Source: Syntrophales bacterium (GTDB lineage: Bacteria > Desulfobacterota > Syntrophia > Syntrophales > PHBD01). From it: a DNA stretch of 64,000 nt. Both the position numbers and the translations under genes were made by a program. The notes under the pieces were generated by a model. It had not been told where the DNA came from and did no database searches. It was given only the letters and a program-made list of their open reading frames with translations. The stretch is from assembly GCA_963668175.1 (NCBI GenBank), contig OY764159.1, forward strand, positions 3,520,001-3,584,000. Direction: 5' to 3'. Of the stretch, positions 23,206 to 55,786 are shown one piece after another; position 1 is the stretch's first letter, and every line of letters begins with the position of its first letter.

Positions 23206-24165
23206 TTAAAGATACAGGCCGTCCATCATTTCCGAAACTTCCGGATAAGGGCACTCCCGGGCAAACAGAACCGCTTCTTCTATTTCCCGATCCAAATCGG
23301 CATTGATTCCTTCGATGTCCTGCTTCTTTACGACTTTCGACTTAAGGAGTTCCTTCTCGAAATCCGCAATGCAGTCCTTCGTCATGGCTTGCGCTACGGC
23401 TTCCTTGCCTCTGTATTTCTGTGCATCTCCGACATAGTGCCCGTACCACCGCTCGCTTCTCACCTCGATGAGCATCGGACCGTCCCCTTTTCGCGCCCGT
23501 TCGACGGCTTTTCCGGCTGCTTCGTAAATCTTCAGTACGTCGTTCTCAACAGATATTGCGGGGATATCGTAAGCTTCAGCGCGGCGGGTCACGGTTTCTA
23601 TCGGCATGTGGATCTTCTGCGGCGAGAATTCGGCCCAGCCGTTGTTTTCGCAGACATAGACAACCGGCAGTTTATGGATCGCTGCAATGTTCAGCGCCTC
23701 ATGGAAGGCCCCTTCTCCCGTCGCCCCTTCCCCGAAGGTAGCCACGGCGACACGGTCCGTCTTTTTGTATTTTTCGGCAAAGGCTGCGCCGGTCGCGATT
23801 GGAATGCCGGCTCCGACGATGCCGTTTGCCCCCATGATGCCTCTCGATTTATCGGCCAGGTGCATGGACCCGGATCTTCCGAGGCAGTACCCCGCTTTCT
23901 TGCCAAACAGTTCCGCCATGGCCTGCTTCAAATCGATGCCCTTGGCAATGGCATGACCATGTCCGCGATGCGTCGTTGCTATGTAATCTTCATTCGTCAA
24001 ATGACTGCATACTCCGACGGGTGTCGCTTCCTGTCCGATGCTCACATGGAGAAACCCCAGGATCTCTCCATTAGAGAATACTTCCATGAGTTTCTGTTCC
24101 GTCTTGCGGATCTTGACCATGGATTTGTACATATCGACCAGCTTTTCGTTTGTCGGTTTTACCAT
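23206..24165 (-). CDS. TPP-dependent dehydrogenase E1 alpha subunit (AcoA/PdhA-like)
   Basis: GFLHVSIGQEA, THRGHGH, GSMH, TPP motif GEGA..HEALN..CENN, GHYVGD; GGAGG RBS before ATG 24165. Confidence 0.92.
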   Translation of the reverse strand: MVKPTNEKLVDMYKSMVKIRKTEQKLMEVFSNGEILGFLHVSIGQEATPVGVCSHLTNEDYIATTHRGHGHAIAKGIDLKQAMAELFGKKAGYCLGRSGSMHLADKSRGIMGANGIVGAGIPIATGAAFAEKYKKTDRVAVATFGEGATGEGAFHEALNIAAIHKLPVVYVCENNGWAEFSPQKIHMPIETVTRRAEAYDIPAISVENDVLKIYEAAGKAVERARKGDGPMLIEVRSERWYGHYVGDAQKYRGKEAVAQAMTKDCIADFEKELLKSKVVKKQDIEGINADLDREIEEAVLFARECPYPEVSEMMDGLYL

Positions 24166-24202
24166 AACTCCTCCTTCCGCGTATTCCGATCTCATGACTA
24201 AA

Positions 24203-24220
24203 TGACTAGTCACTCATTCT
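24203..24220. promoter_or_regulatory. 18-bp operator, degenerate (site 3 of 6)
   Basis: TGACTAGTCACTCATTCT, just upstream of the E1 alpha start. Confidence 0.4.
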
Positions 24221-24248
24221 CACGTTTCGATAAAGCCATCATATCTGA

Positions 24249-24938
24249 CTATTTCTTCCCATTTTCATCCGATTTCTTTTCGCTTACGATTAACTCAATC
24301 CCTTTTTCCATGAAATCTATGATTCCCTCTTTGACCTCTTCCATGGAATCGAATCGGCGCGTCAGGCTCCATCGCCTCAGTACCAGCAGCACCGATGCAT
24401 ACGAGAGTATGTCCGCCGCAAGCTTCAATCTGAATTCATCGATTTTCTGATTTTTAAACCGTCTCCTTAACAGCGCCTCAAACAATTCCACATACCTCAT
24501 TTCCTGGGAAAGCACCGTTCTTATGGCGTCAGTATCGTATGCTCCCGACTCTCTGTACAGGAACATGATTTCATCTTGATTTTCAAAGACCAGATCCAGG
24601 TTCTTCTTCATAACCGTGCGGAATTCTTCCCTGGAATCTTCCACATTGTCCAACGCTTCATTCAATCCTTCCGAAAGAATCGTCGTCATGTGCTGGTAGC
24701 AGATATACAGGATGTCTTCTTTGGTTCTTACGTAATTATACATCGTCCCCATCGTGACGCCTGCGGCTTCAGCAATTTCCCGGACCGTCGCTTTATGGAA
24801 TCCTTTTTCCGAAAATACCTTTACCGCCCCCAGAACGATCTGCCTTCTTCTGCTTTCAATAAGATCTTCGTTCTTGATGCTTGATTCTATCCATTTGTTC
24901 TTCACTGGCTTGCTTTTGAAATTTTTTATGAGTGGCAT
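24249..24938 (-). CDS. TetR/AcrR family regulator
   Basis: FSEKGFHKATVREIAEAAGVTMGTMYNYVRTKEDIL. Confidence 0.93.
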   Translation of the reverse strand: MPLIKNFKSKPVKNKWIESSIKNEDLIESRRRQIVLGAVKVFSEKGFHKATVREIAEAAGVTMGTMYNYVRTKEDILYICYQHMTTILSEGLNEALDNVEDSREEFRTVMKKNLDLVFENQDEIMFLYRESGAYDTDAIRTVLSQEMRYVELFEALLRRRFKNQKIDEFRLKLAADILSYASVLLVLRRWSLTRRFDSMEEVKEGIIDFMEKGIELIVSEKKSDENGKK

Positions 24939-25030
24939 ATTTAAACTTCATCCTTGCAATTTTTTTTCGACTATGAAATATATAGCCACACGTTGTCAAT
25001 ATTTAACCAGTTTTTTTTTTGAAAGAACAT

Positions 25031-25087
25031 TGATTGAGCCCTCACTCAGTTTCGTTATTTAATATAGAACAACGTTTTTTTTGTCAA
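25031..25087 (-). promoter_or_regulatory. Sigma70 promoter of the tetR-E1 operon with downstream operator (site 4 of 6)
   Basis: Minus-strand TTGACA (25087-25082), 17 nt, TATTAA (25064-25059); operator TGATTGAGCCCTCACTCA at 25031-25048. Confidence 0.7.
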
Positions 25088-25125
25088 GAACTTTTTCAAA
25101 AGAAAACGAACAGGAGGTCATGTAA

Positions 25126-25656
25126 ATGCAATCGAACATTCAAGACATGAACATCACGACACTTTCAAAAGAAGAGATTCTCGGTTTCCTCGAAGATGCG
25201 TCTTTAAACTGGCTGGCACATGACGGACTATGGTTCCAGGCCGTGGAAGAAAAATATGGAACGGAAAGCGCGAGCCTGTGCAATCAGAAGGCCATCGCCC
25301 AATACTCCGAGATCGAAGCCAAGCGCATTATGAAACGACTCAAACTTCCCAAGGACGGTGGAATCCCCGCATTGATGACAGCCCTTAAGTTCAGAATGTA
25401 CCATCTCATCAACCGTTCCGATTTCCAGGAAGTTACAGATAATCGCTGTATTTTCAGGATGGTAACCTGCCGGGTACAGAATGCCCGCAAGACGAAAGGC
25501 CTCCCTGATTATCCCTGCAAGCCCGTCGGTATTCAGGAGTACAGTCATTTCGCCCGAACCATCGATCCGCGTATCGAAACACGTTGCATTGACTGCCCCC
25601 CCGATGCACATAGCGATGATTATTGGTGTTCCTGGGAATTCACCTTAAAATTATGA
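25126..25656 (+). CDS. DUF6125-like Cys-rich protein
   Basis: WLAHDGLWF, CRVQNAR, YPCK, CIDCPPD..WCSWEF; GGAGG RBS; family assigned from memory. Confidence 0.7.
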   Translation: MQSNIQDMNITTLSKEEILGFLEDASLNWLAHDGLWFQAVEEKYGTESASLCNQKAIAQYSEIEAKRIMKRLKLPKDGGIPALMTALKFRMYHLINRSDFQEVTDNRCIFRMVTCRVQNARKTKGLPDYPCKPVGIQEYSHFARTIDPRIETRCIDCPPDAHSDDYWCSWEFTLKL

Positions 25657-25705
25657 GTGAGCGCTCATTTTTATACTTGACACGGATCTTTTTTTCGGTT
25701 ATATA
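25654..25705 (+). promoter_or_regulatory. Operator (site 5 of 6) abutting a sigma70-like promoter for the MFS gene
   Basis: TGAGTGAGCGCTCATTTT 25654-25671; TTGACA 25677-25682, 17 nt, TATATA 25700-25705. Confidence 0.62.
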
Positions 25706-25919
25706 ACTTCAAACGCTAGCCATAGTCCGTTACAATTTTTTTTGGAGTCGGCATAGAGAATTCATGTTCGTTCATTCGTGATTTCTGCTGGCTCCCCCTT
25801 TTGTGCTTGTTTAACACACTGATATGTTACATTTATCCGGATAAATGTTCGATGTGAGGAAGGAGGTGCCCTAAAAAATTAACGCAGACGAGAAAAAAAT
25901 GTTTTTTTTGTGAATAAAC

Positions 25920-25937
25920 TGAGTGAGTGCTCAGTCA
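25920..25937. promoter_or_regulatory. 18-bp palindromic operator (site 6 of 6)
   Basis: TGAGTGAGTGCTCAGTCA, upstream of the MFS gene. Confidence 0.68.
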
Positions 25938-26139
25938 TTATAGCATATGGATTCTGATCGAGACGAATGTCGTCTATGACGCAGTCATCGGAAATGCTAT
26001 CTTCTATCGGGAAAGACCGAATGATAAGCGCTCCTGATATGAGCAAGCATCGTCTGTACTTCAGGCGCAATCGGCTGCTAACAGCGTGAATCATCTGAAA
26101 CACATATACAGATATAAGACTCCGGGAGGTTAAAAGACC

Positions 26140-44812: not shown

Positions 44813-45817
44813 TCAGGAGAAAAGCGCTGTCAGGATGGCCCAGAGACCGGCGGACAGCGTACCGGCAATAGGGATGGTCAGGATCCAGGCCCAGACGATG
44901 TTCCCGGCCACGCCCCAACGGACGGCCGATATCCTTTTCGTTGATCCGACCCCCATGATGGCTCCGGTAATGGTATGCGTCGTACTCACGGGAATGCCGG
45001 CAAGGGAGGCGCCGATGATCGATATGGCCGCAGCCGTCTCCGCGCAGAAACCGCCCATGGGTTGGAGCTTGGTGATCTTCGTTCCCATCGTTTTGACAAT
45101 CCGCCATCCGCCCGACATGGTGCCCAGGGCGATGACCGTATAGCAGAGAATGACAACCCAGAAGGGAATATGAAAGACCGGCCCCAGATGGCCGCTGCTG
45201 AAAAGAACAAGGGCGATGATGCCCATCGTCTTCTGCGCATCGTTCATTCCATGGCTGATGCTGTAGATGGCGGCGGAAAGCATTTGCAGTTTTTTGAAGA
45301 TGTTGTTCGACCGGGTAACGTTGCTGCGCCTGGACAGATTCAGAATGATGACCATCATCACAATGCCGAGAAACAAACCGACCATGGGCGAAATGACGAT
45401 GAACGCCGATGTCTTGATGACGCCTTTCCAGACGAGAACGTCCGCCCCGCCCTTCATCAGTCCGGCGCCGATAAGGCCGCCGATCAGGGCGTGGGACGAA
45501 CTGCTGGGAAGACCGAACCACCAGGTAATCAGATTCCAGATGATGGCCCCTCCCAGCGCGGCCACCAGCAGTATATTGTCGACGATGGCCGTATTGACGA
45601 TGCCGGTGCCCACCGTCTTGGCGACCTGGACGTCGAACAGGAAGACGGCCACAAAATTGAAAAAGGCCGCCCAGAGAACAGCCTGCCGCGGTTTCAGGAC
45701 CTGGGTCGAGACGATGGTCGCAATGGAGTTGGCGGAATCGTGAAAACCGTTGATGAAATCGAAAATCAAGGCAAGCACGATGATGAAGATGACAATGGCC
45801 AGGGTTGTGCTTATCAT
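44813..45817 (-). CDS. pit: Inorganic phosphate transporter (PiT family)
   Basis: NGFHDSANSIAT, GLPSSSSHAL, HGMNDAQK, GIPVSTTH. Confidence 0.93.
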   Translation of the reverse strand: MISTTLAIVIFIIVLALIFDFINGFHDSANSIATIVSTQVLKPRQAVLWAAFFNFVAVFLFDVQVAKTVGTGIVNTAIVDNILLVAALGGAIIWNLITWWFGLPSSSSHALIGGLIGAGLMKGGADVLVWKGVIKTSAFIVISPMVGLFLGIVMMVIILNLSRRSNVTRSNNIFKKLQMLSAAIYSISHGMNDAQKTMGIIALVLFSSGHLGPVFHIPFWVVILCYTVIALGTMSGGWRIVKTMGTKITKLQPMGGFCAETAAAISIIGASLAGIPVSTTHTITGAIMGVGSTKRISAVRWGVAGNIVWAWILTIPIAGTLSAGLWAILTALFS

Positions 45818-45822
45818 ATGGA

Positions 45823-46554
45823 TTATTCTTCTATTTCGGTTTTATCGGTCTCGGTGTCCGGGGGCAGGTCCCTGGTGATGGACCAGGCATTGAAGATACC
45901 GAAGAGGACACCGGCGACAACGAGGAAGAGCAAAAATGCGGAAAAACTCTTGTAGGCTTCCATTTGCGTCTTGGCCAGGGTTTCCGTGGCCTTCATCCTT
46001 TCATCGGCCTGTGCTTTCATTTTAGCGACGATGGCATCTATCTGCTCCGTAGGCTCCCGGTCTATACCCCGGACGCTCAGATCCACGCGCCGAGCGGTTA
46101 AGGGATCGGAACCGCGGTATTGCTTAAGGGCCTCGCGGTACTCCCTGCCGAGCCTTTCGTGGTTCGTGATCGCCGAAGGAAGCTCCGGGACGGAGAGTCC
46201 CGTCGTCTTCGTCATGGCCGCAAGAGTCTGCAGGGATTCGCCGACCAGCCGGTCTTCTTCATTGAAGGCCCTGAGATGCCGTTCGTAAAAGTCCTTGTCG
46301 TATCCCCGCAGGAGAATGTTCTTCCATTCCTGGACTTGCTTCTTGAAATGGACTTCCGCCAGACGGGCGGTGTCCGTGGCAAGCATCATGGCCTGTCCCT
46401 CCGTGACGCTTCGGTGCAGGCGGTTGTTTGTCTCCGAAATGGCAATGACGCCGTACAAACCGATAACGACGGTCAGAACGGTAAATATACCGACGGTGAT
46501 GACCACCCGTCGCCTGACGGGAATGTCCTGGAAGAATGTATTCGGTTCTTTCAT
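45823..46554 (-). CDS. Two-TM membrane protein with an MCP-type helical sensor domain and no signalling domain
   Basis: TM, then VHFKKQVQEWKNILLRG..VRGIDREPT, then TM and a short acidic tail; start set at MKEPN. Confidence 0.7.
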   Translation of the reverse strand: MKEPNTFFQDIPVRRRVVITVGIFTVLTVVIGLYGVIAISETNNRLHRSVTEGQAMMLATDTARLAEVHFKKQVQEWKNILLRGYDKDFYERHLRAFNEEDRLVGESLQTLAAMTKTTGLSVPELPSAITNHERLGREYREALKQYRGSDPLTARRVDLSVRGIDREPTEQIDAIVAKMKAQADERMKATETLAKTQMEAYKSFSAFLLFLVVAGVLFGIFNAWSITRDLPPDTETDKTEIEE

Positions 46555-46600
46555 AACTCTGAAGCCTCGCTTACCCTTATGTATCTTTTGACAGACGATT

Positions 46601-46640
46601 GTTGCAGAAATGTGACAGTATTGTGAAGATTCTGTTAAAA
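46601..46640 (-). promoter_or_regulatory. Pho-box-like array A
   Basis: Minus strand TTTTAAC-4-TCTTCAC-4-CTGTCAC-4-CTGCAAC (11-bp period), upstream of the sensor-pit unit. Confidence 0.65.
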
Positions 46641-46756
46641 AGAGGACCAATACTCGGCATTGGCAGCAATATCGGATAGATGCATTTCTCACGGACAACG
46701 CCTGCGCATGCCATATCAAATGTCATCCGATTCCGATTGAACCTTGCGATACGGAA

Positions 46757-46812
46757 GATTCATGGAAAATTCACGATACCGTCATCAAATTGCAACCTGG
46801 CTTCGATATCAT
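46757..46812 (+). promoter_or_regulatory. Pho-box-like array B with -10 element
   Basis: GATTCAT-4-AATTCAC-4-CCGTCAT-4-TTGCAAC (46757-46796), then 10 nt and TATCAT (46807-46812). Confidence 0.65.
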
Positions 46813-46839
46813 TGGGCCAAATTCGGGAAAGGAGAAGCA

Positions 46840-49299
46840 ATGAGCCGAAGCGAGGCGAATTCAGGTTTCTATCTTCGGAACATAGATCACATTCAGGAGT
46901 CGCCGCAGTCCTTGAACCGGATCGTAGGGGCGCTTCACATCCGGACAGACGGTAACAATATCGACTGCCGTACCCTCCCCTTTGCCCCGGGGGATACGAC
47001 GGCGGGAAGCGAGGCGGAATTACAGGCCGCCGTTATCGGACAAAAGACCAATGTCGATCTCCCGTTGATCATCGAACAATCCAATTATTACGCCAATATC
47101 ATCCGCCGGGCGGCGGCCGGCGACACGACCAGAAGGGTCATCACGGACCTGGAAAAGTTTCTTCACACCAATAACGAGCAGGTCTGGGAAAACAGTTGGG
47201 TCCGGTTCCCCCGTTCCGTCTTAAACGGGTTCGCTGAGGCGACTTTCAGGCACGATCTTCTTGCCGACAAGGAAAACCCGTCGCAGGGTGTCCGGACGGA
47301 TGCCGATAAATTCATGTTTACCCGGCAGGAGCGCGAACATATCCGTGTCCCCGTCAGCTATCTCCTGAAGCTCGCTCTGGCCGACGTCCTGGGCGCGGAG
47401 AAAGACCTTCCCCGTTCCATATGGCATTCAGGCCGGGAGCTTATGGACCATTTCCTCAACGACAACACGTCGCCGGAGACCTTCTCTTTTTACGTAACGC
47501 CCCTGAAGGCGGAGGCGGGACAGGGACAGCCGCTGGCAAGGGAAACGGGAAAGCGGTTTCTCCTGACGCAGCTTCTCACCCTGTACGCCAACGAGAAGTT
47601 CCATCTATACGCAACGGGGCAGAAAGCGGCCATCTTCTATTCGCCCCATCCTCCCGTACGGCAGCAGAGGCTCAACAACTGCATCTCCGATGCGTTCTAT
47701 CGCGAGCTTTTCATGAGCCCCTGTCTTTCCGGGTGGACCCGCGGCGAGGCCAAGCAGGACTACATGCATCTATGTCACCGGGTCTTGAGCCGCAGCCAAT
47801 TGAATACCTTGATCAAGCTGCGGGAGGCGGGGATCATCACAAGCAATCTCGTCGCTCTGCCGAATACTTCCAATGTCAGTCTCGCCAACAACGGGACCCA
47901 CATCAGCCTCGGCAGCCGCAAGCTCGGCGAGGCCATGAAAGACAGGACGTCGGGATTTAACAGGGCTTCCGAGAAATATGCCGGAGACCTCGTCGTGAAG
48001 ATGGTGGAACATTTCCTCCCCCTCTTCGTCGGCAGTTACAGCGCGGCCCCGTACCGTCTCGACTACCTGGATTTTCATCCCGAAAAGGTACTGGGGTTCC
48101 TCCCCCATGAACTGGATTACACCCATCTGCGCATGATCTGGCGGCGGTGGCAGAAAAAGGCGGGCATCAAGATCATGGGCCGTCCCACGACGCCTTTCGG
48201 TCCCATCTGGCTCGACCGCATGATCAAGACGGTTTTCGACCTGAAGGGCGATTACGTCCCCGATTACCGTCTGGTCGATTATCTGGTCGCCCTGATGAGC
48301 ACGGAAAAGAGTCCGGCCCTCGACGGCCGCCTGCACAACAGCGATCGCCTCAAGGCGGACCTCGCCGATCTGGGCGTTTTCGACAACAAAATGTCCCTTT
48401 ATCTCTTCGAGAAACTCCGGGAACATGAAGTCATGGGATTTTCCGGATTCGAGGCGCGCCATTACAGCATCTTCTGCCGCTTCGAAGAGGACATGGGGCG
48501 GGCAGCCGCACTGCAGAATCTACTCTATTGCCTGGCCTTCCAGTACATCGCCAAGGGACTCCTGACTCACGATCACATCCCGGACAATCCCGTCGTGGAA
48601 AGCGAACGGAGGCAGATTATCTTCGGGGCGGCTATCGGCATCCCCACGTTCTTCGTTCGCCAGGACACCCAGAATCTCTTCCTGAAGAGAATTGTTTCCG
48701 GAGCGTCCCGTAATCGCCACAGCCGACGGTATCCGGGATATACCCGCGTGCATAACGACGAATACCGGCGGGCGCTTCTTCGGATTTTGCGGGAGGATGC
48801 CGCCGAGTTGATCGAGATGTTCGGCATGCAGGAGGTGATCGACGATCTGTCCCGGCGCCTGGACGATCCCAAGCATTTTTCGGTTGCCGGGCGTCTCAGC
48901 CGTGCCGTCTGCGAAGAAGCAGGCGTCAAATCCCCTCTGCAGGCGGAGGCAGCCGAATTCAACCGGGCCGCCGAGAAGTACTATCGGGAAAAACTGCGTG
49001 CCGGCCACATCGAGGAGAGTCTGCGGTTCTTCGAAGAGGACCTGCTGAATCTGCACCGCGCGGAAGGTCTGCGCCGCGAGACGATCCGTAACGCCGTCCG
49101 TTTTATCCTCCAGGACGGAGATGACCGTCAATTCTTCTCGAAAGTAAGCAAGTCCATAAGTGCTGAGACCGTGACCGAAGAAGACTTGAGAAAACTGATC
49201 TATCTTTTGATTTTAACGATTCATGAGGAAAAATCACACTATGTATGTACAAAAGAACCAGGCAGCACAGGAACACCCCATGCTGCATCACTATGTTGA
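46840..49299 (+). CDS. Large hypothetical protein with GCS2/glutamine-synthetase-fold carboxylate-amine ligase motifs
   Basis: TAGSEAELQ, NDNTSPE, NNGTHISLG, HFLPLFVGSYSAAPY, GFEARH in the expected order; AGGAGA RBS before ATG 46840. The CDS is secure; the function is inferred. Confidence 0.65.
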   Translation: MSRSEANSGFYLRNIDHIQESPQSLNRIVGALHIRTDGNNIDCRTLPFAPGDTTAGSEAELQAAVIGQKTNVDLPLIIEQSNYYANIIRRAAAGDTTRRVITDLEKFLHTNNEQVWENSWVRFPRSVLNGFAEATFRHDLLADKENPSQGVRTDADKFMFTRQEREHIRVPVSYLLKLALADVLGAEKDLPRSIWHSGRELMDHFLNDNTSPETFSFYVTPLKAEAGQGQPLARETGKRFLLTQLLTLYANEKFHLYATGQKAAIFYSPHPPVRQQRLNNCISDAFYRELFMSPCLSGWTRGEAKQDYMHLCHRVLSRSQLNTLIKLREAGIITSNLVALPNTSNVSLANNGTHISLGSRKLGEAMKDRTSGFNRASEKYAGDLVVKMVEHFLPLFVGSYSAAPYRLDYLDFHPEKVLGFLPHELDYTHLRMIWRRWQKKAGIKIMGRPTTPFGPIWLDRMIKTVFDLKGDYVPDYRLVDYLVALMSTEKSPALDGRLHNSDRLKADLADLGVFDNKMSLYLFEKLREHEVMGFSGFEARHYSIFCRFEEDMGRAAALQNLLYCLAFQYIAKGLLTHDHIPDNPVVESERRQIIFGAAIGIPTFFVRQDTQNLFLKRIVSGASRNRHSRRYPGYTRVHNDEYRRALLRILREDAAELIEMFGMQEVIDDLSRRLDDPKHFSVAGRLSRAVCEEAGVKSPLQAEAAEFNRAAEKYYREKLRAGHIEESLRFFEEDLLNLHRAEGLRRETIRNAVRFILQDGDDRQFFSKVSKSISAETVTEEDLRKLIYLLILTIHEEKSHYVCTKEPGSTGTPHAASLC

Positions 49300-50296
49300 A
49301 AGAAACAGCCGCGCAATCCGGCAGGAACGGTTTCGCGGCCACCGCGTCATTCCTTTTATCTACTCCCGCGTCCGGGAGAATTCGCCTCTGTTGTTCCGTC
49401 TTCTGACCAGCCGGAGGATATGCTCCCTCGTCGGTTTTTTGAGTTTCAGCGAGTTCATCAATGAAAGGCTGACCGATCCGCATCGTTTCATGCGGGAAAC
49501 GGGGGTGGACGCGCGGGAATGCCTTGACCTGCCCGTTTCGCTGAATACGCCGAAGAAAATTTTTGAAAGGAAAATCCGTTACTGGGATTGCCGTCCGATG
49601 CCCCACGATCCGGCGGCCGTCGTATCGCCCGCGGATTCGCGAGTGCTTGTGGGATCGTTCGACGAATCGTCAAGCCTTCTTCTCAAGGGAAAATTCTTCG
49701 ATTACGAAGAACTCCTGGGCGTCAACAGGAGACTCTGGCTTGACGCCTTCCGGGGAGGAGATTACGCCGTGTTCCGGCTGACCCCGGATAAATACCACTA
49801 CAACCATACGCCGGTAGCCGGAATTGTGAGAGATCACTACGAAATAGACGGCCGGTATCATGCGTGTCATCCCGCGGCGGTCGTTTCCATGATTACGCCG
49901 TATTCAAAGAACAAACGGGTCGTCACGGTCATCGACACGGACGTGCCGGGAGGCACCGGCCTGGGGCTCGTCGCCATGGTGGAAGTCGTCGCGATGATGA
50001 TCGGCGATATCGTCCAGTGCTACAGCGAATCGCAATATGACCGTCCCGTGTTTCTCTACGACGGTCTTTTTATGAAAAAAGGACAACCGAAGAGCCTGTT
50101 TCGCCCTGGAAGCAGCACGGTCGTCCTGATGTTTCAGAAAAATCGGGTGAGATTTTCCGACGACATCGTCTGGAACATGAGCCGACCGGACGCGGCGTCG
50201 ATTTTTTCCCGCGGTTTCGATCAACCGCTGGTGGAAACGGACGTTATGCTCCGCAGCCTTATCGGAACGGCGAGATTCCAGAAGCCGAACGCCTAG
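49280..50296 (+). CDS. Phosphatidylserine decarboxylase family proenzyme
   Basis: IFERKIR, VSPADSR, FRLTPDKYHYNHTP, KNKR, FRPGSSTVVL; start uncertain (49223/49241/49280). Confidence 0.85.
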   Translation: MLHHYVERNSRAIRQERFRGHRVIPFIYSRVRENSPLLFRLLTSRRICSLVGFLSFSEFINERLTDPHRFMRETGVDARECLDLPVSLNTPKKIFERKIRYWDCRPMPHDPAAVVSPADSRVLVGSFDESSSLLLKGKFFDYEELLGVNRRLWLDAFRGGDYAVFRLTPDKYHYNHTPVAGIVRDHYEIDGRYHACHPAAVVSMITPYSKNKRVVTVIDTDVPGGTGLGLVAMVEVVAMMIGDIVQCYSESQYDRPVFLYDGLFMKKGQPKSLFRPGSSTVVLMFQKNRVRFSDDIVWNMSRPDAASIFSRGFDQPLVETDVMLRSLIGTARFQKPNA

Positions 50297-50366
50297 CGTG
50301 CATCGCGGAAACGGACGGAACAGAAATAATCCATTCACTTTGAGGGAACTTCCCGGGAGGTATCTG

Positions 50367-50807
50367 ATGAGACAGCTGGAATCGTTAATGGATGGGCGGA
50401 AAACGAAGTCCAGAGAAACGGCCATGCACAGTAAGGCCCACGCGGCGATCAGAACGGAGCTTGTCGGGAGGTTGCGCCAGTTGCGCGGCATGGCTTCCCA
50501 CACGGTCAGCGGCATGAAGAACGACAGGGAGAATCCCGCCGATATCATCGACCTCGCTTCGCGGGAGGAGTCCCGGCACATCGAGCTTGCCATCCGGGGC
50601 CGAGAGAGGGAAACCATCCAGGACATCGAGAACGCCATTGCCCGTATCGATTCGGGCGAATTCGGCATATGCGAGGAGTGTAGCGGGGCAATTACGATCG
50701 GACGGCTCCTGGCCAAACCGACAACGACATACTGCCGGACATGCCAGGAGAAGCGTGAAAGGGCTTTCCGGGGACAGGGCCAGCCTGAAATGTTCCGCGC
50801 GGCGTAA
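50367..50807 (+). CDS. DksA/TraR family C4 zinc-finger protein
   Basis: PADIIDLAS (DxxDxA), AIARI..GEFGICEEC..I..RL.AKPTTTYCRTCQ; GGAGG RBS. Confidence 0.88.
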   Translation: MRQLESLMDGRKTKSRETAMHSKAHAAIRTELVGRLRQLRGMASHTVSGMKNDRENPADIIDLASREESRHIELAIRGRERETIQDIENAIARIDSGEFGICEECSGAITIGRLLAKPTTTYCRTCQEKRERAFRGQGQPEMFRAA

Positions 50808-50820
50808 TACCAGGAACATC

Positions 50821-52323
50821 ATGAACGATTCACGTCTCTGGATGAAGAAACTGGCGGACCATTACCGCAGCGTCACCCGCCGCTTTCCCGAAGCAAAACA
50901 CATGATCGTCTTCGACATCGACGGCACGATCCTCGATTCGCGATACATGATCCGCCGCACCCTTCAGTCCTTCGACCGCCATCACGGGACGGAATTCTTC
51001 AGAGACCTCTCCGTTGCCGACATCACCTTCCCCGAAACAGTCCTTGCAGACATCCTGGTATCCCTCGGGCTTCCGGGAGACCGGCAGCGGCAAATCGTCG
51101 CCTGGTATACGGAACACGGCTGGTCGGCCGAATCGGTGCTGGAAGCCCATCGTCCGTTTATCGGCGTGATGGAGGTCATCCGGTGGTTCCAGATTCAGCC
51201 CAATACCCTCGTCGGACTCAACTCCGGCCGGTCCGAGTCGGTCAGGGCGGAAACCCTTTGCTGTCTCAACAAGATCGGAAGGCGCTTCAAGGTCAACTTC
51301 ACGAACGATCTCCTCTATCTGAACCGCAACGGCTGGGACGGCGGGGTCATCGAATCCAAGCTGGAAGGCATGCTTCATTTCCAAAAGGCCGGCTACCGGC
51401 TGTTCGCCTTTGTGGACAACGAGCCGGAGAATCTCGAGGCCGTCGCCTCCATGGACAGGCGGCAGGAGATGATGCTCCTTCACGCCGACACGATCTTTCG
51501 TTCGCAAAGGATGCTCGTACCGAATCGGGCCGTCAGCGGCGACCGTTACGACGTGGCCGAGCTCTTCGCCGAGCATTCGCTGCCCGGCCACATCCAGTTC
51601 GTGTGGCACTCGATCAGCGGCAGGGATAATTTCCTGCGGTTTCTCGCATCCAACGTGCAGTGGGCCGAATTTCCCGTCCGCCTCGGCTACGACGGCAACC
51701 ATCTCGTCATCCGCAACGATTCATACGATGGCGATCTTCCGGAGTACGAAAGTGATGTCCTCTATTTGAAGAAACTTCTTCCCGAGCTTTCCGCAAAGGA
51801 AAAATCGATCAAGATCGACATGAAGGAAGAGACTTTTCCCGTCGATCAACTCATCGATCTTCTGAAACGTTGCGGCTACGACGACAGCCGTCTGTGGTTC
51901 AACGGCAAGATCGAAGCCTTGAAGGAAAAAGGGTTTCGGAAGCTGGCGGCTGCATATCCCCGGGCGATTCTCCAATGCCCCGTCGACGACCTGGTGCCCC
52001 TGATGCTCGGCAGCCCGGCGACCGCCCTGTCCGTCCTCGATACGTTCCGGTCGTGGGGCATTAACCGGGTTTCCCTGAGCTGGAAGACACCGTTCCTGGA
52101 AGCCGCTCTGGAAAAGCTGGAGCGCTGGGGCTTCGAAGTCAATATCTACAATGTGCCCGACCTGGAATCGTTTCTTTCGGCCGTCCTGATGCTTCCCCAA
52201 TCGATTACTTCGGATTTCAACTTTACGCCCTGGCTTCAGGAATCAACAAAATTCCGGGGAAGACATACCGCAAAGGAGTGCCATCTAAGCGGCATAATGA
52301 CACATCCCGGGACAGGAGGCTGA
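50821..52323 (+). CDS. HAD-superfamily phosphatase fused to a PLC/GDPD-like TIM-barrel domain
   Basis: FDIDGT, NSGR, K, VDNEPEN; C-terminal half FVWHS, WAEFPV, IKIDMK, LWFNG. Confidence 0.72.
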   Translation: MNDSRLWMKKLADHYRSVTRRFPEAKHMIVFDIDGTILDSRYMIRRTLQSFDRHHGTEFFRDLSVADITFPETVLADILVSLGLPGDRQRQIVAWYTEHGWSAESVLEAHRPFIGVMEVIRWFQIQPNTLVGLNSGRSESVRAETLCCLNKIGRRFKVNFTNDLLYLNRNGWDGGVIESKLEGMLHFQKAGYRLFAFVDNEPENLEAVASMDRRQEMMLLHADTIFRSQRMLVPNRAVSGDRYDVAELFAEHSLPGHIQFVWHSISGRDNFLRFLASNVQWAEFPVRLGYDGNHLVIRNDSYDGDLPEYESDVLYLKKLLPELSAKEKSIKIDMKEETFPVDQLIDLLKRCGYDDSRLWFNGKIEALKEKGFRKLAAAYPRAILQCPVDDLVPLMLGSPATALSVLDTFRSWGINRVSLSWKTPFLEAALEKLERWGFEVNIYNVPDLESFLSAVLMLPQSITSDFNFTPWLQESTKFRGRHTAKECHLSGIMTHPGTGG

Positions 52324-53624
52324 TGATCAAGACCTTTATCCTCGACACCAACGTACTTCTCCACAACCCCGACGCCCTTTTCGCCTTTGAAGAAAACCGG
52401 GTGATCGTCCCTTTTGTCGTCGTTGAGGAGATCGATTCGCAGAAAATGAGGCAGGACGAGATCGGGAGGAACGCCAGGCTCGTTTCCCGGAATCTCGACG
52501 GCATGAGGGCCCATGGGCATCTTGCCGAAGGCGTGCGGCTTCCCTCCGGGGGAGTCGTTCAGATCGAACTGAACCATCAGAACCTGGACGCATTCCCTGT
52601 GGTTCTGGACAGGGGTAAGTACGACAACCGCATTCTCGCCGTCGCCTGCCATTTCCATAAGGAAAACCCGGGCAGAACGCTCCTGGTAACGAAAGATCTT
52701 AATCTAAGAGTGAAGGCCGATGTCCTCGGCATTCCCGCAGAGGATCTCTTCAAAGACACCGTCGATTACCCGCAGCTCTACGAGGGCGTCGGTCACCTGA
52801 ACGGAACGGCGGAAGACATGAATGCCCTCTATCGGGAAGGAGAACTGGCGCTGAGCGGCAGCGAATGCGCATGCCCCCATCAGTTCTTCGTTCTGAAGGA
52901 CCCGGACAGTCCTTCCCAATCGGCCCTGTGCCGCCACCTGGACGGCACTCTGTACCCTCTGAACTATGCCGATGCGGTCAACTACGGAGTCAAAGCCAGG
53001 AACAAGGAACAGAAATTCGCCCTGGAACTCCTGATGAACGACGATATCCGGGTCGTCACCCTGGTGGGCAGGGCCGGAACGGGAAAGACCCTGCTGGCGC
53101 TGGCGGCAGGCCTGACGAAGGTGGTCGAGCACAAGGTCTATCGGAGGCTCCTTGTCACCCGTCCGGTAGTCCCCATCGGCAACGATTTGGGCTATCTCCC
53201 CGGTTCCAAAGAAGACAAGCTCCGGCCCTGGATGCAGCCGATCTTCGATAATCTGGAATTTCTCCACGCCGACATTAAGCACCGCCGGCAGACGATCGAG
53301 CAGCTCATCGAAAACGGCACGCTGGAAATGGAGGCCCTGACCTATATCCGGGGAAGAAGCATTCCCAAACAGTTCATTGTCTGCGACGAAGCGCAGAATC
53401 TCACACCGGTGATGATTAAGACGCTCGTTACACGCGTCGGGGAAAAATCCAAGATCGTCTTCACCGGCGACCCGGAACAGATCGATAATCCTTATCTGAA
53501 CGCGGGCAGCAACGGTCTGACGTATCTCGTGGAAAAGATGAAAGGCGAGGCGCTGGCCGGCCATATCATCCTGAATAAGGGTGAGCGCTCCGCCGTTGCC
53601 GAACTCGGGGCGAAAATACTTTGA
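52323..53624 (+). CDS. PIN-PhoH fusion protein (PhoH2/YlaK-like)
   Basis: LDTNVLL, DNRIL, TKDLNLR; GRAGTGKT, LGYLPG, YIRGRS, DEAQN, TGDPEQID; TGATG coupling to the HAD gene. Confidence 0.92.
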   Translation: MIKTFILDTNVLLHNPDALFAFEENRVIVPFVVVEEIDSQKMRQDEIGRNARLVSRNLDGMRAHGHLAEGVRLPSGGVVQIELNHQNLDAFPVVLDRGKYDNRILAVACHFHKENPGRTLLVTKDLNLRVKADVLGIPAEDLFKDTVDYPQLYEGVGHLNGTAEDMNALYREGELALSGSECACPHQFFVLKDPDSPSQSALCRHLDGTLYPLNYADAVNYGVKARNKEQKFALELLMNDDIRVVTLVGRAGTGKTLLALAAGLTKVVEHKVYRRLLVTRPVVPIGNDLGYLPGSKEDKLRPWMQPIFDNLEFLHADIKHRRQTIEQLIENGTLEMEALTYIRGRSIPKQFIVCDEAQNLTPVMIKTLVTRVGEKSKIVFTGDPEQIDNPYLNAGSNGLTYLVEKMKGEALAGHIILNKGERSAVAELGAKIL

Positions 53625-53642: not shown

Positions 53643-54698
53643 TTGGATCATAACGGACTGGTTCTGTTCATACTGGCGCTTGGCCTGGCCCTGCTCTTTT
53701 CATGGGGGTTCAGGACATTGCCCCGGGAAGGCTGGCAGGTCATGGCCTGCATTCCCCGGGAAAGAAGGGGCGACGGCCTGTGGAACGGCGTGAATTTCAC
53801 CTATTACGGCTTTTTCAATGCCACGGCGAACGTTATGGCGGTTCTGCTTTTGATCGTCCTCCTCAGGTCGGTGCAGGTCGCTCCGGCGTTCATCTTCATG
53901 CTGGCGGCCGGCGGCCTCGGAATCTGCATTCCGGCGTCGAAACTGCTCGCCCGCTGGGTGGAAGGAAAGCCCCACACATTCACCGTGGGCGGCGCTTCGT
54001 TTGCGGGTATTCTCATCCTGCCGTGGACGGTGTTCATCCTCGACACATTCTTCCGGCGATTTTTGGGCGGTCATCTTCCCGTCATGACCGCCATGGCCGC
54101 GATCACGATCGCCTACAGCCTGGGAGAAGGTGTCGGGCGGCTGGCCTGCATCAGCTTCGGATGCTGTTACGGGAAACCCCTTTCCGCCGTCCATCCGCTC
54201 CTGAGAAGAATCTTCGCTAAATATTATTTCGTCTTCGACGGGCCGACCAAGAAGATCTCTTATGCCCACCATCTTGACGGGGAACCCGTGGTCCCGGTGC
54301 AAGCTCTCACTTCCGTTCTTTACACGGCCGCCGCTCTTCTGGGATCGTATCTTTTCCTTGCCGGCCTGCATGCCGCCGCCTTCGTAAGTACCGTGGCAGT
54401 CACCCAGTTATGGCGCCTTGTCTCCGAGTTTCTCAGGGCCGATTACCGGGGTGGCCGGGTCTTCTCCGCCTACCAGATCATGGCCCTCGCAGCGGTCGGT
54501 TACACCGTGTTCCTGATGTCGATCTTTCCGGAACCGGCGGCCCGCGGGGCCGACATCGTTACCGGTCTCGCATCAACCTGGAACCCGGTTGTCATCATAC
54601 TTCTCCAATTATTGTGGGCGGCTATCTATATCTACACGGGAAGGAGCCGCGTCACGGCCAGCGTCGTTTCGCTCTGTGTCGTCAGGGATAAGACTTGA
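53643..54698 (+). CDS. Atypical prolipoprotein diacylglyceryl transferase (Lgt)-like membrane protein
   Basis: Multi-TM; TYYG, GRLACISFGCCYG, PVQ, WRLVSEFLRAD, SAYQ; TTG start with AGGAGG RBS. Confidence 0.75.
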   Translation: MDHNGLVLFILALGLALLFSWGFRTLPREGWQVMACIPRERRGDGLWNGVNFTYYGFFNATANVMAVLLLIVLLRSVQVAPAFIFMLAAGGLGICIPASKLLARWVEGKPHTFTVGGASFAGILILPWTVFILDTFFRRFLGGHLPVMTAMAAITIAYSLGEGVGRLACISFGCCYGKPLSAVHPLLRRIFAKYYFVFDGPTKKISYAHHLDGEPVVPVQALTSVLYTAAALLGSYLFLAGLHAAAFVSTVAVTQLWRLVSEFLRADYRGGRVFSAYQIMALAAVGYTVFLMSIFPEPAARGADIVTGLASTWNPVVIILLQLLWAAIYIYTGRSRVTASVVSLCVVRDKT

Positions 54699-54817: not shown

Positions 54818-55786
54818 ATGATCCTATCGCTTATCATAACCCGCAGATATGTGCGGACGGCGGCGGCCGTTCTGGCCGTTTTTGTCGTTTCCGTCTTTGC
54901 AGCTCCGGACATTCCATCCTCCTTTTCCTCCCGCCTGCCGTATGCGGCCTTGCTGGCGAAAGAAAAGAATCCCGCTCACCGCTGGTTTAAAAAAAAGAGA
55001 TTGACGAAGCTCCGGGGCGTCGTTCTCGTCGTACACGGCCTGAACCTGAGGCCGGAGCGCATGAAGGCCGTCATCCGCGTCCTGAACGAGGCCGGAATGG
55101 ACGTTCTTAACCTGTCCCTTCACGGTCACGGGGAAAATTATCTGCCCATGGCCGGATTGTCGGATAAAGAGGCCCGCCTGGAATCTTTCCGGCGTGTCAG
55201 TTACACCCTGTGGGCCGGAGAGCTTCGCGACGCCTATCGCAAGGCGCGGGAACGGGCCGATGAGAAAGGCGTTCCCGTCTATTTTGCGGGTTTCTCGCTC
55301 GGGGGGCTCCTGGGGTGTGATTTGCTGGCATCGGATCGCGACGTGTCGTTCCGGCGCATGATCCTCTTTGCCCCGGCTCTCAACGTCATGATCGAGGCGC
55401 ACTTGCTGAAGACCTTGACCCCCTTCCCCAATCTGGTCATCGACAGCCTGTCGCCGCCCTCTTACCGGACCAACGACGGGACGCCCATGGCCGCCTATCG
55501 GGCCCTGTTCGAGGCCATCGCCCATCTTAAAGAGCAGAGTACCGACAGGCTCGATATTCCCACCCTGGTCTTCATCGACGAAAACGACGAATTGATCGAC
55601 GGCCGAAACTTGACGGAGATCGCCTGGAAAGGCCTCACGCGGTGGCGGATCGTGATGCTTCACAGAGACAAAGACGATCCCGGCCCGCAGACACTCTCTC
55701 ACCACCTGATCATCGACGAGGCCGGCACGGGAAGGGAGGCGTGGAAACGAGTCGAGGCGGAGATAAGGCGGCATGTCCGCGAATAA
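54818..55786 (+). CDS. Alpha/beta hydrolase (lysophospholipase/esterase-like), probably exported
   Basis: Hydrophobic N-terminus, VVHGLN, LHGHG, nucleophile elbow GFSLGG, DEL, HH. Confidence 0.82.
   Translation: MILSLIITRRYVRTAAAVLAVFVVSVFAAPDIPSSFSSRLPYAALLAKEKNPAHRWFKKKRLTKLRGVVLVVHGLNLRPERMKAVIRVLNEAGMDVLNLSLHGHGENYLPMAGLSDKEARLESFRRVSYTLWAGELRDAYRKARERADEKGVPVYFAGFSLGGLLGCDLLASDRDVSFRRMILFAPALNVMIEAHLLKTLTPFPNLVIDSLSPPSYRTNDGTPMAAYRALFEAIAHLKEQSTDRLDIPTLVFIDENDELIDGRNLTEIAWKGLTRWRIVMLHRDKDDPGPQTLSHHLIIDEAGTGREAWKRVEAEIRRHVRE

Follow-up and report, generated by a model that had tools for sequence, protein, structure and literature searches.

The gene described here lies in a 64,000-nucleotide stretch of the genome of a Syntrophales bacterium (NCBI GenBank assembly GCA_963668175.1, contig OY764159.1, positions 3,520,001 to 3,584,000, forward strand). 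This whole stretch is referred to as the window, and coordinates are those of the window unless the genome is named. The product of the gene, called the ligase below, is best taken, from its predicted structure, to represent a new family of double size within the glutamine synthetase/glutamate-cysteine ligase (GS/GCL) superfamily. The chance that the ligase catalyses the Glu-Cys ligation in a pathway to the BACys lipids under Pho control is somewhat better than even, and the same applies to the order of steps proposed for this pathway. For the wider proposal, according to which the ligase and the paralogues of Psd and of an inward-facing, Cys-substituted Lgt together form the BACys pathway, are switched on by PhoB and were transferred through at least five phyla of anaerobes, the case appears evenly balanced.

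46840..49299, forward strand: ligase gene; stop-free translation of 819 amino acids; predicted soluble GS/GCL-fold ligase of an unnamed family

The ATG of the ligase gene is preceded by AGGAG at 46830-46834, at a distance of 5 nt. A longer reading of the open reading frame (ORF) from a TTG at 46744 was disfavoured, since the homologues, about 800-830 amino acids long, align from the ATG, residue 1. The family comprised at least 2949 proteins with E<=1e-3 out of 8000 that were scored; 753 cluster representatives at 50% identity were also counted, and one copy each was present in 20 of the 201 sampled genomes of the window's phylum. The homologues were annotated as 'hypothetical' in every source, and the search of the protein Atlas with the ligase returned only the family's own unnamed clusters. 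Longer, fused forms were not found in a dedicated search, which is weak evidence. No transmembrane segment was detected in the ligase, the top Kyte-Doolittle 19-residue mean being 1.34.

The AlphaFold2 model of the ligase, built with a 40-row alignment, reached a predicted local distance difference test score (pLDDT) of 89.8 and a predicted template modelling score (pTM) of 0.91. In an exhaustive structural comparison (VIA) with 48,161 PDB representatives, rows 1-19 of the ranking all belonged to the GS/GCL superfamily, with Z-scores from 16.9 to 6.0. The highest score was obtained with the gamma-glutamylcysteine synthetase (gamma-GCS) domain of GshF (3ln7_B, Z 16.9, root-mean-square deviation 4.4, 400 residues aligned), followed by E. 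coli GshA (1v4g_A, Z 16.6, 409 of 509 aligned) and the YbdK-type chain 1tt4_A (Z 16.1, 337 of 354 aligned), which we take to be the Salmonella YbdK orthologue. Francisella GshA (3nzt_A), PafA (4bjr_A) and Dop (9cku_G) scored 15.0, 14.2 and 13.8, respectively, the plant and yeast glutamate-cysteine ligases 12.1 and 9.9, and eleven glutamine-synthetase-type chains 8.9-6.0. From row 20 onward (Z below 6), the matches covered only the C-terminal helical bundle, residues ~724-806. GshF, GshA, PafA, Dop and YbdK were also ranked first by Foldseek, with a probability of 1.00 for ranks 1-3.

The curved antiparallel beta-sheet cradle of the superfamily was present in the model, and membership was thereby found at the level of the fold. 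An earlier note on this DNA, made from the letters alone, had read a GCS2/PafA/GS-type core in the ORF and had made that reading depend on such a cradle and on conservation of the motif residues, and both were found. The same note had taken the protein to be about twice the size of YbdK-type ligases owing to large insertions, which agrees with the structural alignments: a counterpart in GshA or YbdK-type chains was found for ~340-410 of the 819 residues, and the rest consists of insertions and the C-terminal helical domain. By the model, the unnamed family carries ~400 extra residues relative to GshA or YbdK.

Five motifs had been proposed as the signature of this core. They are indeed present, in the order given, and their positions are as follows.

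Residues 54-62, nt 46999-47025, forward strand: motif 1, TAGSEAELQ; putative metal-binding GxExE on the first cradle strand
Residues 205-213, nt 47452-47478, forward strand: motif 2, FLNDNTSPE; D208, N209, P212 and E213
Residues 350-358, nt 47887-47913, forward strand: motif 3, NNGTHISLG; GxHxxxG strand with G352, H354 and G358
Residues 391-405, nt 48010-48054, forward strand: motif 4, HFLPLFVGSYSAAPY; considered together with R406
Residues 536-541, nt 48445-48462, forward strand: motif 5, GFEARH; ExR strand with G536, E538 and R540

Conservation was determined in alignment A1, which holds 40 full-length homologues with 31-80% identity to the query (every full-length-looking search row and a few close ones, with fragments left out). 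One row was N-terminally truncated, so motif 1 was counted over 39 rows. G56, E58 and E60 were kept in 39/39 rows, and D208, N209, P212, E213, G352, H354, L395, P404, G536, E538 and R540 in 40/40. Slightly lower values were obtained for P394 (39/40), G358 (38/40) and R406 (36/40). Of the 39 invariant columns, 11 fell within the 48 motif residues (~2.3 expected), which is more than chance would give; the five motifs are the most conserved parts of the ligase. In the model these residues are located on beta strands: E58 and E60 on strand 53-60, H354 on 353-359, P404 and R406 on 401-407, E538 and R540 on 536-541, whereas E213 opens strand 213-215. By analogy, the conserved Glu, His and Glu-x-Arg of the cradle strands would be metal and phosphate ligands. 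At the level of the fold and of conserved residues, we are nearly certain that the motif observation is confirmed and the ligase-core reading supported.

A comparison with YbdK was made by using a 10-member alignment of that family, in which G15/E17/E19, H136/H138/G140 and E237/R239 were invariant and G134 near-invariant. Motif 4, which the earlier note had likened to a YbdK-type segment, has its counterpart at the same place in the motif order in the consensus YLPHxLALSxNSPFW, with P159, A163, S168 and P169 invariant. The order GxExE ... GxHxHxG ... LPxxxALSxxSP ... ExR is common to both alignments, and the spacing between the motifs is much larger in the ligase than in YbdK. The structural alignment with 1tt4 begins at residue 52 of the model and residue 11 of the chain, which would place G56/E58/E60 on G15/E17/E19 of YbdK if the strand is ungapped. 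The best hhalign segment set R527/G533/E538/R540 opposite R228/G234/E237/R239 of YbdK with an insignificant probability of 0.4%.

The comparisons at the level of sequence gave no support. The ligase had no match in Pfam and NCBIfam at E<=10, and searches of the PDB by phmmer and by hmmsearch with the family profile gave 0 matches. GCS2, Glu_cys_ligase, Pup_ligase and Gln-synt were matched by 0/40 members of A1 in Pfam at E<=10; the matches obtained with these members were to 14 unrelated families, each hit by 1-2 members, with a best E of 0.0088. When A1 was compared by hhalign with E. coli GshA, with E. coli YbdK and with the 10-member YbdK alignment, the probabilities were 0.3-0.8% (0.3% with GshA and 0.4% with the YbdK alignment). 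By hidden Markov models, neither the GshA-type family PF04262 nor the YbdK/GCS2 family PF04107 was recognised in the protein, its 40 homologues or the genome. No sequence method therefore ties the ligase family to any ligase family, and this speaks against the placement, as does the Foldseek E-value of ~4e-3, with no match at E<=1e-3. A residue-by-residue equivalence with known enzymes is suggested by the motif order, the strand positions, the start of the 1tt4 alignment and the hhalign segment; the last two are weak pointers and no proof.

The source genome is complete, in one contig of 4.57 Mb. No match to PF04107, PF04262 or PF02955 was found in it (GCS2 and PF04262 were both searched at E<=1, with 0 matches). 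With no GCS2, GshA or GshB-type match in the genome, glutathione synthesis is not the role of the ligase. In its gene neighbourhood, two paralogues of lipid enzymes recur.

49223..50296, forward strand: Psd-like pyruvoyl-type decarboxylase paralogue; PF02666 at 134 bits; the start of the listed ORF is provisional
53643..54698, forward strand: Lgt-like membrane transferase paralogue; PF01790 at 24.5 bits

Linkage was counted in 80 loci, the best 80 of 536 relatives in named genome records, originating from Syntrophales, Smithella, Geobacteraceae, Desulfobacterales, Acidobacteriota, NC10, Nitrospinota, Nitrospiraceae and anammox bacteria. A Psd-like homologue was located directly downstream of the ligase gene in 73/80 loci, and an Lgt-like homologue was present in 67/80. 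As for the 7 loci without the Psd-like gene, four (L025, L043, L075 and L080) stop with the ligase gene or shortly past it, and in L008, L009 and L020 an alpha/beta hydrolase stands in the usual Psd-like place.

The listed Psd-like ORF overlaps the 3' end of the ligase gene, and its score is far below the NCBIfam equivalog cut-offs. The PAD, HxN and G-S-S/T motifs, which in Psd enzymes make up the site of proenzyme cleavage and of the pyruvoyl group, were kept at >=90% in 70 members of the module. A separate canonical Psd and a canonical Lgt, with 167.5 and 242.6 bits, respectively, are encoded elsewhere in the genome, so the Psd-like and Lgt-like proteins of the module are extra copies. A third match to the PS_Dcarbxylase family, with 125.7 bits, was observed in a 488-aa open frame at another locus of the genome, L083 (G000:C1:2315617-2319252).

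The model of the Lgt-like protein had a pLDDT of 90.4 and aligned with E. coli Lgt (5azc_A) with a Z-score of 13.3 over 232 of 284 residues, whereas the next row of the ranking had a Z-score of 5.7. Of the Lgt signatures, only the Arg of G-R-L and the E-F-x-R segment are kept; the signature segment reads GRLxCxSFGCCYGKP in comparison with G-R-L-G-N-F-I-N-G-E of E. coli. The protein has an extra N-terminal helix. By taking the helix boundaries of the predicted model as loop limits, a mean of 16.9 Lys+Arg was determined for the loops with conserved residues and the C-tail, compared with 1.7 in the alternate loops (33 sequences). The active site of E. coli Lgt faces the periplasm, and its periplasmic side is negatively charged, according to PMC4728403. 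The charge distribution in the modelled loops suggests that the active site of the Lgt-like protein is inverted and faces the cytoplasm, which is what a cytoplasmic ligase would need.

Arrays of the Pho-box type were found on both strands of the intergenic region upstream of the ligase gene.

46759..46796, forward strand: Pho-box-type array upstream of the ligase gene; four in-phase half-sites, TTCAT, TTCAC, GTCAT and TGCAA, with 11-nt spacing
46601..46628, reverse strand: second such array, directed towards the divergent TarH-like/PiT operon
44813..46719, reverse strand: divergent operon; TarH-like membrane protein at 45823-46719 (weak TarH match) and PiT transporter at 44813-45817

The forward array is followed by a -10-like TATCAT at 46807-46812. 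The PiT phosphate transporter was recognised by PF01384 at 329.8 bits; a PiT/TarH-like pair is also located upstream of the ligase gene in L025. Pairs of [TC][TG]TCA[TC] half-sites 11 nt apart occurred 50 times in the genome and 8 times in the reversed sequence. At least three in-phase half-sites were found at 6 places in the 4.57 Mb, of which the ligase promoter (46759-46796) is one. A 26-nt composite, TCAY-N7-TCAY-N5-TGCAAC, which was defined after three of its four sites had been seen, was present at four places in the genome and at none in the reversed control, and its rarity rather than its recurrence counts as evidence. Two of the sites share the intergenic region in front of the ligase gene, one being upstream of this gene and the other, on the opposite strand, directed towards the PiT operon. 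The third precedes an operon of PBP_like_2 and MlaEFDCA, and the fourth lies between a PhoB-like response-regulator gene and pstCAB.

A generic test with the E. coli-type core TGTCA-N6-TGTCA (>=8/10, within 300 nt upstream) was applied to 73 loci. The core was found on either strand in 41/73 loci versus 14.0/73 in shuffles, and on the coding strand in 28/73 loci versus 9.0% of 6070 control windows, which are mostly coding sequence; the related loci are not independent, and the significance of this enrichment is therefore overstated. The coding-strand array of the window scores just 7/10 against this core and was recognised only via the pstCAB and PBP_like_2/Mla promoters of the same genome. 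PhoB-type phosphate-starvation control of the ligase module is suggested by these sequence motifs.

The operon with the third composite site, L118 (G000:C1:3597000-3604200), encodes PBP_like_2 (PstS-family), MlaE, a fusion of an MlaF-type ABC ATPase with GGDEF, MlaD, MlaC and MlaA. It is preceded by a 40-nt repeat array nearly identical to that of the ligase promoter, and this phospholipid-transport operon may belong to the regulon of the ligase. No array was found upstream of the best-scoring PBP_like_2 gene (genome positions 703412-704095).

A lipid whose headgroup fits the three enzymes has been described. In Ding et al. 2024 (PMC11181052), Desulfatibacillum alkenivorans PF2803 is reported to swap phosphatidylethanolamine (PE), phosphatidylglycerol (PG) and cardiolipin for glucuronosyl and new S-/N-lipids when phosphate is at 0.0005-0.0015 mM. 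The latter, the BACys lipids, were found only at these concentrations; their headgroup fragment has m/z 205.064 (C7H13O3N2S+), and an example is BACys-DAG(35:0), where DAG stands for diacylglycerol, with the formula C45H87O7N2S. BACys has its core lipids in common with PG and PE, which is what PG as the donor would lead one to expect. No genes are assigned to BACys in that article. Literature searches returned Ding et al. 2024 as the sole source for 'butyramide cysteine' and the sole relevant one for 'BACys', and no publication combining phosphatidylserine decarboxylase, diacylglyceryl transferase and glutamate-cysteine ligase; among the matches listed for Lgt, thioether and phosphate limitation, nothing relevant was found.

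By arithmetic, gamma-Glu-Cys (C8H14N2O5S) minus CO2 and the thiol H gives C7H13N2O3S. The family chemistry of the trio could thus yield a headgroup of this formula, thioether-linked to diradylglycerol. The ligase would act as a soluble, cytoplasmic, ATP-dependent carboxylate-amine ligase, most like gamma-glutamylcysteine ligase. If it works like GshA, phosphate would be transferred to the gamma-carboxylate of L-glutamate, with Mg2+ held by E58, E60, possibly E213, H354 and E538, and with R540 on the phosphate. The alpha-amine of cysteine would then attack the activated carboxylate to give gamma-Glu-Cys. The Lgt-like protein would transfer the diradylglyceryl group of PG to the cysteine thiol, forming the thioether and freeing glycerol-1-phosphate. 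Finally, the Psd-like pyruvoyl enzyme would decarboxylate the glutamyl part at its free alpha-carboxyl. Decarboxylases of the pyruvoyl type require a free alpha-amino acid, which a gamma-linked Glu offers. The predicted product, S-(diradylglyceryl)-N-(4-aminobutanoyl)cysteine, is a zwitterionic lipid that contains no phosphorus and has the headgroup C7H13N2O3S.

Several points count against this pathway, in addition to the late definition of the composite motif and the relatedness of the loci mentioned above. The substrates of the ligase were guessed from the lipid formula and the partner enzymes, and 'N-butyramide cysteine glycerol' is a tentative assignment of the authors from tandem mass spectrometry (MS2) (PMC11181052). 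The role of R143 and the residues essential in E. coli Lgt (H103, N146 and E151) are given in PMC4728403. In the Lgt-like protein the His of HGGL, H103, is replaced, and invariant Cys occupy the positions of N146 and E151; having lost these residues, it may catalyse a different reaction. The name Desulfatibacillum did not appear among the 120 listed of the 2949 ligase matches or among the 120 listed of the 2932 matches to a Desulfonema homologue, both of which are uninformative. Other triple arrays precede genes of a methyl-accepting chemotaxis protein (chemoreceptor), a hybrid kinase and a PilZ protein; the regulon may not be purely Pho, a label suggested by pstCAB. In the window, the trio is moreover interrupted by DksA-like, HAD-like and PIN-PhoH genes.

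These points leave room for a GCL-fold ligase which takes part in Pho-controlled lipid remodelling and has a product other than BACys, for example the amine of PE, phosphatidylserine (PS) or another headgroup amidated with an acidic amino acid, or a soluble metabolite. The evidence of fold, linkage and promoter constrains the chemistry loosely, and the changed catalytic residues of the Lgt-like protein would suit such a product as well. We nevertheless consider it unlikely: relatives of a thiol transferase, a Glu-Cys ligase and an amino-acid decarboxylase predict exactly C7H13N2O3S, whereas an Asp- or Ser-based product would have a different formula, and no further orphan lipid known to us would match.

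Somewhat less probable still is an isomer made by the same trio in another order, a gamma-glutamyl-cysteamine lipid, also C7H13N2O3S. In that scheme the Lgt-like protein would make S-diradylglyceryl-cysteine, the Psd-like enzyme would convert it to S-diradylglyceryl-cysteamine, and the ligase would add Glu via the gamma-carboxyl. S-lipidated cysteine would be the nearest analogue of phosphatidylserine, the normal Psd substrate; the ~400 extra residues of the ligase could bind a lipid, and the formula cannot by arithmetic separate the two isomers. The ligase has no membrane segment, in contrast, and the MS2 reading of the authors favours the loss of the glutamyl rather than the cysteinyl carboxyl (PMC11181052).

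A ligase or deamidase that modifies proteins in the manner of PafA/Dop, acting on a protein or peptide that is then lipidated by the Lgt-like protein, is highly improbable: PafA and Dop reached 14.2 and 13.8 in the structural ranking, but GshA, GshF and the YbdK-type chain scored higher (Z 16-17), and the Psd-like partner would have no role. Upstream of the ligase gene, the window has the divergent PiT operon and not a conserved small Cys-rich gene that could encode such a substrate. A dead scaffold or regulator that keeps the fold only is the least credible, since the metal- and phosphate-type residues, which dead homologues usually lose, are invariant at 31-80% identity, even though the ligase activity is a prediction from sequence and model.

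The remaining genes of the module region, next to which the proposed BACys trio stands, are the following.

50298..50807, forward strand: DksA/TraR-type zinc-finger protein; PF21157 and PF01258
50587-52323, forward strand: HAD-like ORF; DxDGT-type N-terminus, weak Acid_phosphat_B match, C-terminal half unrecognised
52278-53624, forward strand: PIN-PhoH gene, between the Psd-like and Lgt-like genes
54818-55786, forward strand: alpha/beta hydrolase (Hydrolase_4), just after the Lgt-like gene

The order in the window, all on the forward strand, is ligase, Psd-like, DksA-like, HAD-like ORF, PIN-PhoH, Lgt-like and alpha/beta hydrolase. A DksA-like gene accompanied the Psd-like and Lgt-like genes, either between them or close by, in 22/80 loci, mostly from Syntrophales and Smithella. 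HAD-like and PIN-PhoH homologues were each near the trio in 4/80 loci, and alpha/beta hydrolase homologues flanked the ligase in 7/80. As a speculation, a phosphatase at this place could release phosphate from the glycerol-1-phosphate derived from the Lgt-like reaction. Elsewhere in the window, the G+C content drops to 0.431 at 24001-26000, compared with 0.50-0.63 in the rest; this stretch could be foreign DNA or an RNA/intergenic region.

The placement in the GS/GCL superfamily gives a testable function to thousands of 'hypothetical' genes that are invisible to Pfam and NCBIfam. If the BACys pathway is correct, it would supply the missing genes of a lipid class described in 2024, account for the ability of anaerobes such as Geobacter, Syntrophus and anammox bacteria to rid their membranes of phosphorus and provide geochemists with a gene marker of a sedimentary lipid. 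The chemistry of Lgt and Psd would have been recruited to a small-molecule purpose, which for the Lgt reaction would be the first. It would also be a new general phosphorus-sparing route, from PG to a zwitterionic thioether lipid, with the phosphate returned as glycerol-1-phosphate.

Among known systems, the BACys lipids share with the trio the formula of its predicted headgroup, and their formation only at low phosphate, as reported in PMC11181052, corresponds to the Pho-type promoter found here. The enzymes of the GshA type (1V4G/2D32, 3NZT, 3LN7/3LN6; PF04262) are the best structural matches of the ligase, with 400-409 residues aligned (3ln7_B and 1v4g_A), and resemble it in the acidic residues, the His and the ExR on the cradle strands and in the proposed chemistry between the Glu gamma-carboxyl and the Cys amine. 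They differ in having no detectable sequence similarity and a length of 518 instead of 819 amino acids; moreover, the ligase is tied to lipid enzymes and a phosphate-starvation-type promoter and not to glutathione synthesis. With the YbdK/GCS2 family (PF04107; 1R8G, 1TT4), the ligase has in common a Z-score of 16.1 and counterparts of 4/5 motifs in the same order, whereas no match by hidden Markov models was obtained and the ligase is more than twice as long. PafA and Dop (4BJR, 9CKU, 7OXV) have the same superfamily fold, but their scores were below those of the GCL enzymes, none of the 40 members had a Pfam match to them and the context of the ligase is that of lipid enzymes. Known cases of Pho-regulated phospholipid replacement are the ornithine lipids (OlsBA/OlsF), the betaine lipids (BtaAB), sulfoquinovosyl diacylglycerol (SQDG) and the PlcP/Agt glycolipids. 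These use no GCL-fold ligase, Psd paralogue or Lgt paralogue, but the module described here would share with them the replacement of a phospholipid by a phosphorus-free lipid under the control of PhoB.

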